Source of the DNA: a virus
IMG/VR virus record: IMGVR_UViG_3300036861_001106
Span: 32,001 to 96,000 of that record
DNA length: 64,000 nt
Reading direction: 5' to 3' (one strand)
Below the pieces are notes generated by a model, which saw only the letters and a program-made list of their open reading frames with translations, searched no databases and had not been told where the DNA came from. This document shows positions 1,152 to 41,728 of this stretch, piece by piece. Every line of letters starts with the position of its first letter. Position 1 is the stretch's first letter. The position numbers and the translations under genes were made by a program.

Positions 1152-4100
1152 TTGCCCTACGCCAGGACCAGCGAGCTGCCAGAGGGTGTCAAGGGTGCCC
1201 TGCCGAAGCGGGGTCAACGCATCTTTCGCGCTGCGTTCAATGCCGCTCACCGCACCTACGGTGGCAATGAGGAGCGGGCCTTCAAAGTGGCCTGGGCGGC
1301 GGTGAAGCGCGTCTTCAAGAAGAAGGGTGGCAAGTGGGTCAAGGCCAGCCAGTCTGATCTGACCACCCAGCAGCTCCTCCTGGACACGCAGCGGCTCTAC
1401 CAGGAGCACTGGCGCCGCAACCCCGAGGCGCTGCCTGCCCAGCGCACGGTCAACGACCTGCTGGCGCAGGTGGCAGCCAACCCGACACAGGACTTGCGAC
1501 TCCTGCGGCAGCTTGAGGGGCTCGGTGTCCCGTACTTTGACTTCGAGGCGCTTGTGCAGTCATACGCGAATCCAATGCCGTGTGCGCCTCACACCGATGA
1601 CTTTCCCGGCTCCCTGGACCACCGCATCCGGCGGGTGTGCTGCGCCGTGCGGGATGAGGGCGACGAGTACCTGGGCGAGTACGGGTACGTGCTGGCAGTC
1701 TACCCCAACTTCGCCGTCTGCTGCTCCCTGGACGAGGGCGATGAGGACACTGACTACTGGAAGGTTGACTACACGTTCAACCCGACGACGTTTGAGGTGG
1801 CACTGGGCGACGCCCAGCCGGTCGAGGTCCTGACCGTCGTGGTGCCGCATGAGGGGGAGGCGATGGAGACACCAGAGCGCGAGGGCCTGAACATCGGCGG
1901 GACTCAGACCGTGGTCGACCAGGAGGCCAAGTTCAAGACCGACAACGGTCAGCAGTTCTCCCGAGGTGCCTACCTCATCATCGGCGACCCTGACCTCCCC
2001 TCGACCTGGAAGGTGCGCGTGGAGGAGACGCCGGGCAAGGTGACGGTGCCGCAGCTTGGGCGTGCCTACGCAGCCCTGACCAAGGGCTTTCGGGGCAACA
2101 AGGTTGCAGCCTCCGGCGGTGACAAGTCGGCGGCGCTGGGCAAGCTCAAGTCGCTCTACAAGTCGCACGACGCCGAGTGGCCCGGTGACAAGCAGAGCGT
2201 GGCGCCTGACCTCACGGGGGCCTTGAACCAGGACCCCCAGTGGACCACCACGCCCACCTGGCTGGCCCAGGGGCAGCCGCCGCCGGGCGGGGACGAGGAC
2301 CTCGTCCAGACCTGCGCGCTTGAGCTTGAGCAGGTGGAGGTGGACAAGCAGACGGGAGTCATGCACATTCGAGCCTGCCTCACCGTCGGGAACGTCCTGA
2401 ACGCCATGGGGGAGGTCTACCCGACGCAGGTGTGGGAGGACAACCTCCCCTTCTTGCAGACAGCCGCCGAGCAGGGGGCGCTCCTCGGCGAGTCCAACCA
2501 CCCACCGCCGGGTGAGTCATCCCTGGACCGCTCCTGCATCCTCTGGGATGAGGTGTGGCTTGAGGGTGACCGGCTGATGGGCGCTGGTCGCGTGCTGCCC
2601 ACGGTGCCCTCTGGGCAGAACCTGCAGATGCTCCTGCAGCACGATGCCAAGGTGGACGTCTCCTCCCGGGGCAAGGGCACGCGCAAGCAGGGCGACTGGG
2701 TCAACCCCACCACCGGCGAGCGGTACCAGGATGCGTTGGTGATCCAGCGTGGGTACCGCTGCCGCACATTCGACGCTGTCGGGTCCGGCGCCTCGCCGGG
2801 CGCGACCATCACCACGCACGAGATGGCGCAGCAGGCCGACCTTACTGCTGAGGAGCACGACATGAAAGAGATCGAAACCCTGTCGCAGCAGGTCCAGGCG
2901 CAGGCTGCGACCCTCGCGCAGATCACCGAGACGCTGGCGAAGCTTGCCGCACCCCCGCCCGCCCCGACACCCCCTGCGGCGGGCGCTGCCACCGCCGCGC
3001 TGGATGTCCCGGTTACCGCACCAGCCACAGCAGCACTGCAGCAGGCAGCCCCGGACTTCGTGGCTACCCTCACCGCGGTGGCTGCGCAGCAGGAGCGGAT
3101 GATGCCCCTCCTGCTGGAGGAGCGCAAGCGGCAGCTCCTGGAGCAGGCGCGCACGGAGCACAAGCTCCCGCAACAGTGGCTCAACTCCTACCGCAACATC
3201 CTCAACGAGGGGCAGTGCAAGTCCATCGCGGAGCTGGAGGCGCACTCCGAGCGCATGCTGCCGGCGGTGCTCTCGATGTACAAGGAGCGCCCGCAGTTGG
3301 CGCACGGCTTCCAGGTCCAGCAGGACCCTGGGGAGCGCCCTGGCCCGAAGACCCCCCGGCAGATGATTGACTTCCTGGTCAAGGACGTGGACGACACGGT
3401 CCTCTACGACCCACAGAGCTTCATCCGGCAGGATGATGAGACAGGTGCGCCGGTGCACGCACCCGACTCGGTGAAGACCCGGCGGCGCCAACTGCGGCAG
3501 ATCCTGCTGAACATCGCCCAGCACCAGGATGACAACTGGAATGGCCCTGCTGCGCTGACGGCGTTTGTGCGGCTCTACCAGGGCTACGACCCCATCCAGG
3601 TCAAGGATGCATGGATGGACCAGGCCTGCGCTGACTGCACCACCTCGGTGGCAGCCGGTGGCGCGCCCTCCAGCGCGCTGTTCATCTTCCCGCTGGTCCG
3701 GGCGGTCTACCCGCAGCTCATCGCGCCGGAGATCGCCTCTATCCAGCCGATGGACCGGCCTGACGGGCGCATCTTCTTCCTGAATGCGTTCCGGTGCCCA
3801 GTGCCGGGCATGGACGTGGTGGACCAGTCGGGGGCCACGATCTCCAACCGGATGTTCATGGACCGCAGCTCGTCCTTCAGCTCGTCCTTCGCGGATCGCG
3901 CGGCTGAGTGCGACGAGGCGGCGAAGATCCAGCTCCGGCTGGCCTCCGTGTCGGTGACGGCGACGACCAAGGCCCTCACCTCCATCAACACGATTGAGGA
4001 GCTGCAGGACCTGCGGGCCTACCATGGGCTGGACGTGAACACCGAGCTGATGTCAGCCCTCTCCCGGGAGATTGCCCTGGAGTGGAACCTCACCGTGCTC

Positions 4101-26298: not shown

Positions 26299-27201
26299 AT
26301 GCCCGAGCAGACCCTCGACATGCGCGCCTACATCTTGCCGCGCTACACCCCCACGGCCTTTGGTGACGCCCCGGACGACAGCATCGGTGGCATCGCCACC
26401 ACCGACGCGCCCCCCGCGCTCGACTACTACGAGGGTGAGCAGGAGCAGGCCACCACCCGCGGCGACGCCAGCCTCCCCGTCTACATCTGGGACCTGGGCG
26501 TGCCCACGGTCGGTGGCGTCGTCACCGTGCGCCTGCGGATGCGGGCCAACATCCGCAAGACGCAGGAGCAGACGATCCAGCTCCGCGCCAAGGTCACCAA
26601 CCAGGTCCTGCGGCAGATCCAGATTCGTGCCTACGTCGTGCGCCCGGTGCGAAAGACCATCAGGATGCGAGCCCGGATCTTCACGGGCGTCTCCACCAAG
26701 ACCATCCGCCTGCGCGCGAACGTCCGCAACACGGTGACCCGCACGCTCACCATGCGTGCGTCGATCCAGCGGCCCAACTTCCAGATTCAGCTCCGGGCCA
26801 GGATCACCAAGGCGGTGTCGCAGACCATCCAGCTCCGCGCGGCCATCACCCCGCAGACCCTGCAGAAGATCGATCTTAGGGCCAACATCCAGGCAGTGGC
26901 CACACAGTCGCTGCAGATGAGGGCAAGAATCCAGCCCTTCACCGACCTGCAGATGCGGGCGAGGATCCGGCAGGTCGTCTCGACTACGCTGGAGCTGACC
27001 TGGAACGCCGCCGAGCCCCTGCGGTCGCCGCTGCTCCTCACCTGGAACGCGGGCGAGGGCACGCGGACGTCACACGTCATCACGATGCGCGCGATGATCG
27101 TCAGCCCACGCAGCACGACGGTGGAGCTGGAGTGGCGGGTGGAGGCGCCGGTACCCGAGGGGCCGGTCACGGAGCCGATTCAGAAGCTGGAGACACCCTG
27201 A
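26299..27201 (+). CDS. tail-associated protein with ~14-aa [IL]x[LM]RAxI repeats
   Basis: about 13 repeat copies. Confidence 0.7.
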   Translation: MPEQTLDMRAYILPRYTPTAFGDAPDDSIGGIATTDAPPALDYYEGEQEQATTRGDASLPVYIWDLGVPTVGGVVTVRLRMRANIRKTQEQTIQLRAKVTNQVLRQIQIRAYVVRPVRKTIRMRARIFTGVSTKTIRLRANVRNTVTRTLTMRASIQRPNFQIQLRARITKAVSQTIQLRAAITPQTLQKIDLRANIQAVATQSLQMRARIQPFTDLQMRARIRQVVSTTLELTWNAAEPLRSPLLLTWNAGEGTRTSHVITMRAMIVSPRSTTVELEWRVEAPVPEGPVTEPIQKLETP

Positions 27202-31738: not shown

Positions 31739-32952
31739 TGGCGGGTGAGAAGGAGTTCATCGCCGACTTCTGCAAGGCACGCCGCTTCACGCGGTTCCAG
31801 ACGAAGCGCAACCTGGCTGCGCCCCTCGACGTCCTGGACGTCACCACCATCGCGCCGCTGGGCTGCAACCTGATCGCCGGGCACCAGGGGACGGAGGCAG
31901 GGGTGATCCTCTCGACGGTGGACCACCGCACGGGGGGCTACGGCAGTGCCATCCTCACCTCCGCAGACCCTGAATCGGTGTTCAACCCAGGCCCGGCGAC
32001 CAACGTCGACGCCACGCCCACGCTGCAGCTCACGGGCGCGGCGACCCTGCCCTTCCCCACCACCAACGTGTCCTCCACGATCGACTACAACCTCGCCGGG
32101 CGCCTCTGGTGGGCCGAGGTGGACGACGTCGAGACCTACGGGGAGAATCAGCGGAACGCCCTCACCTTCGGCTTTGGCGGCGACTACGGCCCCACGAAGA
32201 CCCTGCACCTGCCCACCGGCAAGGAGTTCACGCACTCCTTTGGCCGCCTGGCCTACCACGTCTACACGAATCAGGTCCTCATGCCGCGCCTCAACGTGCC
32301 GCTGACGCCCCTGGGGCTGGGGTACGTCCCCAGCCACAGCCGGTACGAGTGGCCGGCGGGCGTGCCGGGTGTGGGGGGGATTGCGACGGAGACCAGCTTC
32401 GCCGGGGAGGTGTGGAGCTTTGGCGTGTTCTTCTACCAGGTGCACCCGGCGCTCGTCGGGTTCAACGGCGAGGAGGTCTCTGACTACATCCTGAACCCCC
32501 TCCAGCCCCACGTGGTGCAGAATGACATCTTCGACCGGAAGTACTGCTACGTCGACCTGGAGACCCTGACGTGGCCCGCCTACGGGGGCAGCGTGGCTCG
32601 TGCCTACACCATCCCCGGTGGGCTGCGGCCGCAGTCGGTGATCTACAGCCAGAGCGCCAACTCCCCGGGCTGGACCCTCACGATCAACGGCACCCCGATT
32701 GGCCTCGGTGGGGGGAGCGCCGTGCTACCCACGCCGCAGCTCATCCCCTTCCCCCCCTCCTCGGTCGGTGGCAGTGCCACGCCCTGCGACGCGGCGACTG
32801 AGGCAGACCTGGGCCTCGACACGACCCTCTTCACCTTCGTGGCCACGGGCTTCGCGAAGGTCCTGACGGTGGGACCACTCCTCTTCAGCGGGCTGGCAGG
32901 CCCCCGGCAGTACGAGTTCATCGTGTCATTCCTACACGTGCCGCCGCCATAG
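31738..32952 (+). CDS. putative minor tail protein
   Basis: coupled ORF, last + strand gene of the module. Confidence 0.55.
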   Translation: MAGEKEFIADFCKARRFTRFQTKRNLAAPLDVLDVTTIAPLGCNLIAGHQGTEAGVILSTVDHRTGGYGSAILTSADPESVFNPGPATNVDATPTLQLTGAATLPFPTTNVSSTIDYNLAGRLWWAEVDDVETYGENQRNALTFGFGGDYGPTKTLHLPTGKEFTHSFGRLAYHVYTNQVLMPRLNVPLTPLGLGYVPSHSRYEWPAGVPGVGGIATETSFAGEVWSFGVFFYQVHPALVGFNGEEVSDYILNPLQPHVVQNDIFDRKYCYVDLETLTWPAYGGSVARAYTIPGGLRPQSVIYSQSANSPGWTLTINGTPIGLGGGSAVLPTPQLIPFPPSSVGGSATPCDAATEADLGLDTTLFTFVATGFAKVLTVGPLLFSGLAGPRQYEFIVSFLHVPPP

Positions 32953-38484: not shown

Positions 38485-38840
38485 GGGTGACCTGCGTCCT
38501 CGCTGACCTTGGTCTTCATTGTCTCCTGAATCAACGCCTCCAGCTTTGCGATCCGCTCGTTGGCGATGTAGAGGTCAGTCTTGACGGCGCTGAGGTTGGA
38601 GTTCGTCAGCTCGTGGATCTTGTCCAGCTTCTCGTCGGAGCGCGCTGCAATCGCCTTCGTGGTGTCCTTCAGGTCCTGCACCTTCTCGTCGACGTTGTCA
38701 ACGGTGCGCGCGGTCACCGCCTGGAGCGTCTGGATCCGCGCGCTAGTCCTCCAGGCGGTCACGAGGTTGGTCAGCACGAGCCCAACCGCAGCGATGATGG
38801 TGAGAATCTCCTGACTGGTCATCGGGCACAGCACCTCCAA
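38481..38840 (-). CDS. N-terminal TM + coiled-coil protein
   Basis: one TM; KLDKIHELTNSNL. Confidence 0.6.
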   Translation of the reverse strand: MEVLCPMTSQEILTIIAAVGLVLTNLVTAWRTSARIQTLQAVTARTVDNVDEKVQDLKDTTKAIAARSDEKLDKIHELTNSNLSAVKTDLYIANERIAKLEALIQETMKTKVSEDAGHP

Positions 38841-38930
38841 ATTGGGCGTTAGCTGCTTCTTGCAGCTCGTTGTCCCCGGTGACGCATTCAGGCAGTCGCA
38901 ATGCGTCAGTAGCCGTCGTCGGGTTTGAAG

Positions 38931-40958
38931 TTACTCTCTTGTTCTCTCCTCCGCCTGCCTCTTCCAGTGCTCCATTCTGGCAACTGCGATCTCACAGTAC
39001 CTGGGGTCGCCCGGCGGCTCCCCCTGCTCGATGCCCAGGAAGCGGAACCCCTCCAGGACCGCCGCGCAGCCAATCGAGCCTGAGCCGCAGAATGGATCGA
39101 TGAGGAGCCCCCCTGGCGGGGTGATCAACTTGCACAACCATCTGCACAGCGCAATACTCTTTACAGTGGGATGGTTGTTCTTGACCTTGACCGGGGCCCA
39201 CCTAGGTTCAGCCTCCAAGCCCCCTGGATTGACGCGGTTCAGGATGGCATGGTCGAGTTCGTCGAGGCCCGCCTCTTTTTCGGAGCGGCTCGCCTTCGCC
39301 TGGTATTTCCACAGTATCGGGTCGATCTCGCCATCCCCATCGTTTCCACGGGTGGCGGCGGCAATGGCAAGCTGAACAGAGCCACACCACCGTCTCAACT
39401 TTTGAATAGTCGGAATGATGCCGATGCTCTCCAGGTCTTCCGCAATCGGTGCAAGGCTTTGGATCAGGATTTGCTCTTTGAGCGCGCAGATAGAATCCTG
39501 TCCAGGAATTAACCCCCGGCAAAGGTCTGGCTTTTTCTCGGCAATAGCTTGAGCAATAGTTGTTCCGCATCTCTCGCACAGGCTTGCCACAGACCAGACA
39601 TGATGGGCGATCTGTTCGGGAAGCGATGCCGGAGCACTTAGCAGAACAGAAGATTCGCTCGTTGGATTCATATTCCCAGAATCGCTTCCCGCACTGGCGA
39701 CAGAAATGCTCTCGCTTTGGTTTCTGACCTCGACTTCGGCAGGTTGATGTCTTTGAGCACGAGTTTGAACAGAAACGCCTGCTTGGTTTCGTTGGAGCAA
39801 AGAGGTTACCGCACCATTCACAGGGTCGCAACTTGTCGGTTGATGACATAAAAAGCACTTTCTCGCGTCTTGGAAGTTCGGAAAGAATCGCGAGGGCGAC
39901 TTGAGCAACTTGGACGCCTTGCAGCCGTCCTCATCCAGCTTGCGCACCGGGCAACCCGGCACACATGCCCAGAGGTCCACCACCTCCAGCCCCTCCGCGT
40001 CGCCGTAGCCCTCAAAGGTGTCGTGCCAGTCCTCGTGCTCCTTGTCGTCCTGATTGTAGAACGGGTTCTTCTTGCCTCCCTGAGTCACGGTCGTCGGGCA
40101 GCCCTTGACCTTCTGCGTGCCGACAAGCACACAGTGTTCGCTGTGGGTGAGCAAGAGATTCGGAGCGTGTCGACCCTTCTTCCCCCGGCGCGCCTGCACC
40201 TCCTCCGGCGGCATGTCGCGGATCTTGAAGGTGTCCTCGCCAAGGTAGCCGTTAGTCCGCCCATAGCTCCCTGTCTTGTGCCAGCCGGGGACATCGTCGC
40301 TGGTGCGACGCACCTCGCAGGCACCGACGTTCAGGGCACCCACACCCCACTTGAGCAGGTTGTCGGCGATTGACCCCTTGAAGGGCTTCTGAACCAACCA
40401 CCAGCACTCAACTGCGGGCTTGGTAGCGTTACCCCAGCCCAGCCACTGCTGACCCTCTTCGGAGGTGGGCTCCAGCACCTTGCTCTGCAGACGCTCACGG
40501 TCGGGGTTACTGGCGAAGGCGTTGCCCCTGATGTCCTGGTTGGTCCAGGGGCGCTCCCCTACCGCGACTGGCTCGGCACCAACCTTGCGATCCACGTCGA
40601 TGGCCACGTTGCGATTCTTGGGAAAGCCCTGACCGTGGATGTGGTAGATGCACTCCTGCACGAAGAAGCCAGCATCCTCCAGTGCCCAGGCAGTCCAGTG
40701 GCTAGTCCGGGGAAAGGCCCACACCAGGCCGTAGGCACCTGGCTTGAGCACCCGGTGTGCCTCCCGCATGACCTCGCTGAGCCATGCCACCCACTGATCT
40801 CGGCCGCCCTTGTTGCCGTCCCAGGCGCGCCCCATGAACGAGGCGCCCCCCGGGGGGTCGGTGCAGAGCGCATCGATGCTGCTGGAGGGCAGCTTCCGCA
40901 ACACCTCAAGAGAGTCACCGAGGATGACCTTGCCCCAGCTTCCCACGCGCCAGATCAT
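38931..40958 (-). CDS. DNA N6A/N4C methyltransferase (beta class) with ~185-aa insertion
   Basis: GDSLE.L, TDPP, GFPK, KPA.E, SRFF, KAS..E, NNHPTVK, DPFCGSGS. Confidence 0.85.
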   Translation of the reverse strand: MIWRVGSWGKVILGDSLEVLRKLPSSSIDALCTDPPGGASFMGRAWDGNKGGRDQWVAWLSEVMREAHRVLKPGAYGLVWAFPRTSHWTAWALEDAGFFVQECIYHIHGQGFPKNRNVAIDVDRKVGAEPVAVGERPWTNQDIRGNAFASNPDRERLQSKVLEPTSEEGQQWLGWGNATKPAVECWWLVQKPFKGSIADNLLKWGVGALNVGACEVRRTSDDVPGWHKTGSYGRTNGYLGEDTFKIRDMPPEEVQARRGKKGRHAPNLLLTHSEHCVLVGTQKVKGCPTTVTQGGKKNPFYNQDDKEHEDWHDTFEGYGDAEGLEVVDLWACVPGCPVRKLDEDGCKASKLLKSPSRFFPNFQDARKCFLCHQPTSCDPVNGAVTSLLQRNQAGVSVQTRAQRHQPAEVEVRNQSESISVASAGSDSGNMNPTSESSVLLSAPASLPEQIAHHVWSVASLCERCGTTIAQAIAEKKPDLCRGLIPGQDSICALKEQILIQSLAPIAEDLESIGIIPTIQKLRRWCGSVQLAIAAATRGNDGDGEIDPILWKYQAKASRSEKEAGLDELDHAILNRVNPGGLEAEPRWAPVKVKNNHPTVKSIALCRWLCKLITPPGGLLIDPFCGSGSIGCAAVLEGFRFLGIEQGEPPGDPRYCEIAVARMEHWKRQAEERTRE
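39208..39849 (-). CDS. Zn-finger HNH endonuclease nested in the methyltransferase, -1 frame
   Basis: three CxxCG..CSxxC units, then CTDCG..RHHSDYSK..WLCSACHCRRH. Confidence 0.8.
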   Translation of the reverse strand: MSSTDKLRPCEWCGNLFAPTKPSRRFCSNSCSKTSTCRSRGQKPKREHFCRQCGKRFWEYESNERIFCSAKCSGIASRTDRPSCLVCGKPVREMRNNYCSSYCREKARPLPGVNSWTGFYLRAQRANPDPKPCTDCGRPGEHRHHSDYSKVETVVWLCSACHCRRHPWKRWGWRDRPDTVEIPGEGEPLRKRGGPRRTRPCHPEPRQSRGLGG

Positions 40959-41170
40959 CGTCCCCCCTCCGTCGGCAGCGGCGCGGGGCCTGGCGCGTTG
41001 GCCGGGCCGTTGGGCACGAGCACGGTGGGCGGGGCCGGCGCAGCCACGAACGGCAGGTACACGCCGACGTAGAGGATCACGAACAGGATGAGGATGACGA
41101 GGACGAGCACCTCAAACACCCGCAGGTGCCACCACTCACCGTTGTCACTCCCAGCCACCCAGCGTGGCAT
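40955..41170 (-). CDS. small membrane protein
   Basis: one TM, Pro-rich tail. Confidence 0.5.
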   Translation of the reverse strand: MPRWVAGSDNGEWWHLRVFEVLVLVILILFVILYVGVYLPFVAAPAPPTVLVPNGPANAPGPAPLPTEGGR

Positions 41171-41331
41171 TATTTTTCCCCCTCCTCCTTCTCGTCCCCC
41201 CACACACCCCAGTCCTGCAGCAGCTCGCGCGCCAGGACGGCCACGAAGGCCACCACCAGCAGGAAGGCTGCCCCCAGGATGATGTTGGCGGTGGTCAGGT
41301 GCCCCGCGAGCCACGTGAGTGCGAGTTCCAT
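41170..41331 (-). CDS. small membrane protein (53 aa, leaderless, not in ORF track)
   Basis: MELALTWLAGH..; ATG 6 nt after a -10 box. Confidence 0.55.
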   Translation of the reverse strand: MELALTWLAGHLTTANIILGAAFLLVVAFVAVLARELLQDWGVWGDEKEEGEK

Positions 41332-41337
41332 GGCTTG

Positions 41338-41366
41338 ATTCTACCGGGGAGATACGTCCTTGTCAA
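41338..41366 (-). promoter_or_regulatory. sigma70-type leaderless promoter
   Basis: TTGACA-17-TAGAAT-6 nt-ATG. Confidence 0.7.
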
Positions 41367-41413
41367 CTACCTGCGCCTGAAGAGGCACGGAGCAGCAGCC
41401 CCGTGCCTCCAGG

Positions 41414-41728
41414 TCAGGGGACAGGCGGGGTTGGCGGCAGCGCCGCCTCCAGCTTGTCAGCAGCGGCCGTCAGGTCGCCCATGACAGCCTGCAGCGCAGC
41501 CACCTGCGGGGTGAAGTCGCCACCCCCACCGTCACCAGCCTGCAGCGCAGCCACGACGGCGTCGACGTCGGTGCCGACGCGCGTGACGGCCGCCTGCACG
41601 TCGCTGATGGCAGCAGCAAGGTCAGCCAGGGTTGCCATTAGTTTCTCACCTCCCAGCCGGGCCAGCGTGGCCTCGTAAAACGCGGCGAACGCAAGCGCCG
41701 CAGTCAGCAGCAGGACGAACAGTTCCAT
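41414..41728 (-). CDS. hypothetical helical protein
   Basis: ORF with GC3 bias. Confidence 0.5.
   Translation of the reverse strand: MELFVLLLTAALAFAAFYEATLARLGGEKLMATLADLAAAISDVQAAVTRVGTDVDAVVAALQAGDGGGGDFTPQVAALQAVMGDLTAAADKLEAALPPTPPVP

Follow-up and report, generated by a model that had tools for sequence, protein, structure and literature searches.

A probable splicing-free endonuclease gene of homing type, nested out of frame within the DNA methylase gene of a phage

The closest described counterpart of the locus analyzed here is the ShiLan domain, a hidden out-of-frame HNH coding region in the mycobacteriophage DNA methylase gp65 and its relatives (Gosselin 2023, PMC9957025; Arsenault 2025, PMC11855218), whose insert of about 606 nucleotides (nt) contains no stop codon in the frame of its host gene (PMC9957025). 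A methylase insertion is also known from Pacc40 gp60, and in phages Sashimi and Tiff81 the methylase has free-standing HNH genes as neighbors (PMC11855218). Here we describe a locus of this kind in a 64,000-nt stretch of viral DNA (positions 32,001 to 96,000 of IMG/VR record IMGVR_UViG_3300036861_001106), referred to below as the window; the parent phage record is 109.5 kb long, possesses direct terminal repeats and is rated complete. Comparison with related sequences indicates that the locus is most probably a splicing-free nested endonuclease gene of homing type, which would be tolerated as a loop in the methylase. A sequence-only reading of this DNA had proposed that the endonuclease spares its host gene by remaining stop-free in the host frame, and this proposal is supported by stop depletion among relatives, by empty alleles and by one free-standing relative. 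Its description as a new, third route besides introns and inteins does not hold, since the route has already been published (PMC9957025, PMC11855218).

The host gene exhibits the motif order (IV...X-I), the Pfam PF01555 match (3.7e-18) and the fold of a beta-class methyltransferase. It also matches PHROG 67 (1.6e-45), both the N- and the C-terminal parts being matched, and its core is modeled by AlphaFold with a predicted local distance difference test score (pLDDT) above 90, resembling CcrM, M.PvuII, M.MboIIA and M.RsrI. As the sequence-only reading had noted, the open reading frame (ORF) runs uninterrupted from end to end, insert included. Alignment with insert-free homologues places the insertion site between ...SRFFPNF and (K)YQAKASRSEKE, and about 185 codons of the window gene are absent from the closest methylases (P0002, P0003, P0004, P0006 and P0008; 55-63% identical). 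The guanine-plus-cytosine (GC) fraction is 0.50-0.54 across positions ~39300-39900, compared with 0.61-0.66 in the flanks (~0.63), so that the low-GC block of approximately 560 nt seen earlier is confirmed both by composition and by alignment with empty alleles. Five such alleles were recovered by the alignment that had been proposed for this purpose; the exact boundaries expected from it were not, and each edge can be placed only to within a few codons, owing to the similarity of the two junctions. Over the residues contributed by the insert in the host frame (364-548), the AlphaFold model shows only low-confidence helices (pLDDT 26-62). Motif IV of the window methylase (positions 40845-40859) reads DPPGG instead of the usual DPPY, with an aromatic residue three positions on (SF), and DPP[AGSC]G is common to the whole clade of close methylase relatives. 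A further close homologue, seen as protein (P0007, 764 amino acids (aa)), contains about 270 aa of low-complexity sequence inserted elsewhere, following ...NLVLSH; this stretch looks like the read-through of another hidden element.

Searches at the protein and DNA levels found relatives of the nested nuclease on 46 contigs from metagenomes and on a single contig each from a virus and a genome bin. At approximately 42 loci, a tblastn map locates the HNH relative between the N- and C-terminal parts of a PF01555 methylase. A scan of the frames shows that the embedded relatives always occupy the methylase+2 frame, i.e., one frame behind the methylase, and that the methylase frame contains no stop across the nuclease match, compared with 3-13 stops per locus in the remaining frame. 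Nearly every copy starts with an ATG just before the first CxxC and stops at the 3' edge of the insert; the ATG start is conserved among 33 homologues, and the copies are 45-63% identical among themselves. Among 50,697 phage records, tblastn with the nuclease yielded one uncultured jumbo phage together with weak matches to distant zinc-finger/HNH proteins. The jumbo phage (485 kb; LR745208.1, positions 26593-27015, 51% identity) provides the sole match in the phage collection with E <1e-10, and its record includes three methylase-like places.

The open host frame was assessed by holding the nuclease protein fixed and either shuffling its codons synonymously within the gene or drawing them from the codon usage of the methylase flanks, with a family set of 30 non-redundant embedded copies (<90% identity). 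For these copies, 52.8 (shuffling) or 72.9 (flank codon usage) host-frame stops are expected. None occurs in the intact embedded copies and one in a rearranged copy (L044), whereas the third frame carries 235; the joint probability of the deficit across relatives is approximately 1e-34 to 1e-44. The test of stop depletion across many insertions, as suggested by the sequence-only reading, thus gives zero in intact embedded copies against 53-73 expected. For the window alone, the expectation is 1.7 stops with a probability of 0.12 that none occurs (synonymous shuffling), or 2.0 stops with a probability of 0.07 (flank codon usage); the earlier estimate of a roughly 1e-4 chance event was therefore too strong for a single locus. 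A natural control is provided by L026 (1547-3576), in which a free-standing nuclease lies directly 3' of a methylase of 479 aa that is intact and uninvaded, and in which stops do occur in the equivalent frame. Its nuclease has a possible TTG start (2983) that overlaps the methylase stop by 4 nt, and an ATG at 3004. This locus may represent an intermediate between the free-standing and nested states. Taken across the relatives, where alone the evidence is decisive, the comparison shows that selection, not chance, keeps the host frame stop-free throughout the family.

Constraint between the two frames is also evident at individual codons. At a Leu-Met pair, a leucine codon of the form NTG followed by ATG creates a TGA in the host frame. 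At the invariant Leu-Met of the nuclease, such a codon is found in none of the 29 embedded copies that have the leucine, and the free-standing L026 has both TTG and the stop. For identical HNH residues in pairs below 60% identity, the same codon is used at a frequency of 0.52-0.54, versus 0.38 after shuffling (a ratio of 1.4); the corresponding ratio in single-coding methylase flanks of the same loci is 1.08-1.14. These flanks served as the control because the +2 frame is uninformative for amino-acid conservation, all frames sharing the same nucleotides. Val91 of the nuclease is encoded by GTG in 31 of 31 copies, a codon that accounts for about 9% of valine codons elsewhere in these genes, and this choice supplies a cysteine in the host frame. 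A host-frame CxLC, which in most relatives precedes the nuclease ATG, is retained in 28 of 30 copies; TGC and TGT alternate in it, and what is retained is therefore the residue and not the codon. Together, these patterns suggest that the host-frame peptide is translated and partly constrained.

Group I and group II introns were rejected as candidates: no Rfam match was obtained at E<=1 over positions 38500-41500, and no room beyond about 21 nt is left outside the nested ORF, the ATG of which lies 21 nt into the insert. An intein was likewise rejected. PF01555 is the sole Pfam domain of the 675-aa protein, which contains no Hint or other intein domain; the insert starts with Q/D and ends with ...ILW, neither residue being conserved in relatives; the first insert residue is not a conserved Cys/Ser, the end lacks His-Asn, and the model has no intein-like fold. 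The lack of an intron or intein signature noted at the outset is thus upheld by both Rfam and Pfam. In the arrangement that we favor, a cassette of about 564 nt and foreign composition would have been inserted into the methylase gene at ...SRFFPxF/xYQxK..., between the catalytic half and the S-adenosylmethionine (AdoMet)-binding half of the predicted enzyme. Its main product would be a nuclease of about 180-213 aa with zinc knuckles and an HNH-like core, started from its own ATG in the methylase+2 frame. Since the cassette DNA is kept stop-free in the methylase frame, ribosomes would read through it and produce an enzyme of 675 aa, some 185 of which would form an internal loop that is disordered for the most part. 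This long methylase is presumably made and active, and the nuclease presumably cuts empty alleles and spreads by homing.

The nested ORF (Table 1) fills all but about 21 nt of the insert and has an alternative GTG start at 39858 (ORF 39208..39858, minus strand). Its zinc knuckles give weak Pfam matches to the zf-FCS and DUF2116 treble-clef families and structural matches to YacG/FCS fingers (Z 3.4-4.2). Within the core, C133, C136, R143, H144, H145, Y148, W156, C158, C161, H162 and H166 are invariant in 33 sequences; all 30 family-invariant residues are present in the window nuclease, which on this basis is considered intact. Its AlphaFold model has a mean pLDDT of 85.7. The best structural matches of residues 110-178 are mostly HNH nucleases at low scores (Z 2.1-4.1), led by GVE2 HNH (4.1), Gme HNH (3.6) and HNH-Cascade (3.5) and followed by IscB, P1 Ref, McrA and I-HmuI. 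One faint match to a PHROG "HNH endonuclease" is placed over a zinc knuckle; a Foldseek search with the whole nuclease model returned C2H2 zinc-finger arrays only, and a sequence-profile search of the PDB returned zinc fingers only. The ORF, frame and ATG of the complete zinc-finger HNH protein announced by the sequence-only reading are retained, and the HNH label is kept at reduced certainty, as HNH-like on motif and fold. At the 3' edge, the relatives terminate with a TAA or TAG written within host codons of the form xxT AAr; the window has a G instead (GAA at 39295-39297), and its ORF continues further.

Table 1. Coordinates of the features of the nested locus in the window
Feature	Position	Strand	Basis
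Host gene, beta-class N6A/N4C DNA methyltransferase ORF, 675 aa	38931..40958	(-)	ORF list
Insert, ~564 nt, host codons ~363-550	~39309-39872	(-)	Alignment with empty alleles, GC profile
Nested endonuclease ORF, 213 aa from ATG 39849, methylase+2 frame	39208..39849	(-)	ORF list
Three CxxCG...F(Y)CS..C zinc knuckles, residues 10-31, 50-72, 84-103	39541..39822	(-)	Family alignment
HNH-like catalytic core CxxCG..G.HRHH.DY......WLCxxCH...H, residues 133-166	39352..39453	(-)	Invariant motif
Nuclease C-terminal extension of ~30 codons into conserved methylase sequence	39208..39300	(-)	Family alignment, stops of relatives
Host-frame CxxC (C368-C371), overlapping nuclease start codon	39846..39857	(-)	CxLC kept in relatives
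Host-frame CxxC (C461-C464), written over invariant V-R-x-M-R of nuclease	39567..39578	(-)	Val codon GTG

The 5' part of the insert bears on expression of the nuclease. A sigma70-like promoter precedes the nuclease ATG in 13 of the 30 relatives, many of which also have a Shine-Dalgarno-like motif, against a background of 3.6%; in L039 (2940-3000) it reads TTGACA-17-TATAAT. This promoter segment shares its DNA with host-frame codons, e.g., those for C-x-L-T and H-D-I-M. A near-leaderless mRNA is suggested for L039 and L051, where 6 nt separate the end of the -10 box from the ATG. The window and L012 share a short 5' version without the promoter/Shine-Dalgarno segment, and our guess is that the window nuclease would be translated by internal initiation on the methylase mRNA.

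Some relatives show departures from the usual arrangement. L044 (1-1235) and L045 are rearranged copies, in which the TGA of an unrelated upstream gene overlaps the nuclease ATG (ATGA); the nuclease is followed by the host-frame remainder and the C-terminal methylase part only, the N-terminal half being absent. In L038 (459-1995), the methylase frame closes at 1008, after the HNH insert, and the C-terminal part resumes about 780 nt further on in the same frame; the gap may represent a further interrupting element, one that carries stops. L012 (2058-2543) and L042 (1428-2174) have, besides the HNH of the window type, a second nested out-of-frame ORF in the N-terminal half of the methylase, which belongs to Pfam HNH_3 as in the ShiLan type. 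Their host frames are open throughout, as ORFs of 845 and 910 aa, and the second insert of L042 has intein-like host-frame edges (GCLSEDTEILT... and ...ITGN/S) with no Pfam intein domain.

The distribution of the insert was examined on a methylase tree from which the insert columns had been removed. The window methylase groups with the five alleles that are empty (support 99), P0005, which is invaded, has the empty P0023 as its sister (support 99), and 19 metagenomic hosts form a separate clade; the tree thus requires at least three gains or losses of the insert. In 92% of pairs, the nuclease is more conserved than its host methylase; together with the patchy distribution, this is indirect evidence of homing. 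The window element is old and persistent.

Several observations weigh against the proposed nested homing-type endonuclease. The rejection of a tree in which the window and P0005 are forced together (approximately unbiased (AU) test, p = 0.009) concerns a group that was named only once the tree was known. The window nuclease shares no more than about 57% identity with its nearest relative, and the HNH and methylase distances correlate moderately (R2 0.21); for both of these reasons, recent homing of the window copy is not supported. No Pfam HNH family is matched at E<=1 by any of the 33 family members, and the structural scores for the HNH assignment are weak (Z at most 4.2). No sigma70-like promoter or clear Shine-Dalgarno motif precedes the window nuclease ATG. 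Finally, the open frame of the window by itself is weak evidence (P 0.07-0.12, not significant).

Among the other explanations, a true dual function of the coding sequence is the most likely, doubtful as we consider it. The host-frame peptide would then be a selected module, e.g., a zinc site formed from the two CxxC motifs and short helices, which could pin the loop or add DNA contacts. Such a zinc-binding clasp, as the cassette's own tolerance module, would tie the two ends of the loop to each other, leaving the methylase able to fold; functional protein would then be made from both frames of these 560 nt, and the element would possess a counterpart of splicing at the level of protein structure. 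The kept CxLC with its alternating cysteine codons, the dependence of the second host-frame CxxC on the invariant GTG, the long and recognizable host-frame consensus and the over-conserved synonymous sites are all in line with such a module. The low pLDDT across the insert weakens it, as well as the broader notion of a translated and constrained peptide, and ancestry or constraint at the nucleotide level can explain the GTG at Val91, which is also present in the free-standing L026. Moreover, 20 of 28 copies use CTT for the leucine of CxLC, and the adjoining TTG is often a -35 box; in view of this bias and of the promoters in relatives, part of the host-frame conservation is attributable to regulatory DNA. 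It is very unlikely that the window methylase is already dead and its open frame inherited or due to chance. The single-locus probability of finding no stop would allow this, and DPPGG in place of DPPY at motif IV might be taken as a sign of decay; nevertheless, both halves keep every invariant column of the methylase family, the whole clade of uninvaded relatives has the DPP[AG]G variant in common, and the family-wide pattern indicates selection for read-through.

Removal of the insert after all, whether by a ribozyme that escaped recognition, by protein splicing of an atypical kind or by long-range translational bypassing, appears even less plausible. Just past the junction, invaded alleles tend to have Ser and empty alleles Pro, as with the ShiLan domain (PMC11855218), and the likeness of the two junctions also fits removal. 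Against this, Rfam returned no match and the ORF takes up the space that a ribozyme core would need; neither the Hint domain, the terminal residues nor the fold of an intein is present; and RNA splicing or the ribosomal bypassing raised in the sequence-only reading would need no stop-free host frame, yet this frame is under strong selection. The same reading had offered a programmed -1 frameshift at C TTT TTA, which would fuse the N-terminal half of the methylase to the HNH, and this we find hardly credible. A T-rich run does lie directly 5' of the nuclease ATG, but C TTT TTA departs from the canonical X XXY YYZ heptamer and is conserved in no relative. Nearly all relatives have their own ATG, and an in-frame stop is located some 1-50 codons upstream of the nuclease start; the promoters found in 13 of 30 likewise argue for independent initiation.

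The nested endonuclease gene of the window can be compared most directly with the ShiLan domain. Like the latter, it resides in a phage methylase of the PF01555 type (the window protein is 31-36% identical to the methylases of clusters A1, E and F), within an insert of about 560-610 nt that has no host-frame stop and no intron or intein signature; in both, the distribution is patchy, and predictions give a host-frame peptide that is disordered over most of its length, with a few helices. A copy matching the ShiLan description was found by megablast in gp66 of Mycobacterium phage Totinger (L058; PQ362683.1, 41872-44196), a phage not named in the paper, where an out-of-frame HNH_3 ORF (L058:1157-1846) occupies the +2 frame, as in the window. 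Totinger gp66, annotated simply as DNA methyltransferase, also has an in-frame LAGLIDADG-type insertion near its N-terminus. The Totinger insert is situated within the ALKPxxEPxVVARKP motif, at the equivalent of residue ~191 of the window methylase, whereas the window insert is at residue 363; Pelly gp59 is uninvaded at both sites. The Totinger nuclease belongs to Pfam HNH_3 (PF13392, 4.6e-9) and has a central core, whereas the core of the window nuclease is C-terminal and PF13392 is matched by none of the 33 members of its family; pairwise BLASTP between the two aligns only the zinc knuckles (CxxCGK.F..Y...CS..C). The window locus thus shares with the ShiLan kind the insertion, the open host frame and the complete out-of-frame ORF, which in this copy is about 30 codons longer through replacement of the usual 3'-edge stop by GAA; it differs from the ShiLan kind in the site and in the lack of HNH_3 homology. 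In addition, the window family comes from environmental metagenomes and diverse phages and its copies are old (45-63% identical), in contrast to the near-identical ShiLan copies from actinophages. Another nested case, in this instance annotated, may be present in Mycobacterium phage Lamina13 (NC_024143.1, 40239-41336), in which the methylase match is about 500 nt longer than expected and gene 62, an annotated HNH endonuclease, overlaps the match to methylase gene 61.

As with Pacc40, Sashimi and Tiff81, embedded and free-standing forms of one nuclease lineage exist in the window family, the latter represented here by L026. Pacc40 appears to differ in methylase subfamily, site and nuclease. Like HNH genes in introns of the I-HmuI type and like endonuclease-bearing inteins, the window element places a site-specific nuclease gene at a conserved spot of a phage gene, the host function being preserved; unlike them, it has no ribozyme or Hint domain, and the host function would be kept by read-through in another frame. 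Friedrich et al. are said to have described in 2007 that mobE in nrdA of Aeromonas phage Aeh1 splits its host gene into two polypeptides. In that system too, an endonuclease gene interrupts coding sequence with neither intron nor intein; in the window, however, the host remains one ORF.

Gene callers hide nuclease genes of this kind and report over-long methylases in their place, and mobile-element searches based on interrupted ORFs, introns or inteins will overlook them. The window element represents a lineage of its own, widespread and located at a new site, within a kind that was itself first published in 2025. An out-of-frame endonuclease whose host frame is read through would accordingly be no oddity of mycobacteriophages: the arrangement recurs in a second nuclease lineage, unrelated to the first, which occupies a different site in this methylase family, is present in many environmental phages and has kept the arrangement over a long divergence. 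Beyond the 2025 description, this family supplies a quantitative test of selection versus chance for the open host frame, a free-standing natural control, and codon positions at which the two frames constrain each other.

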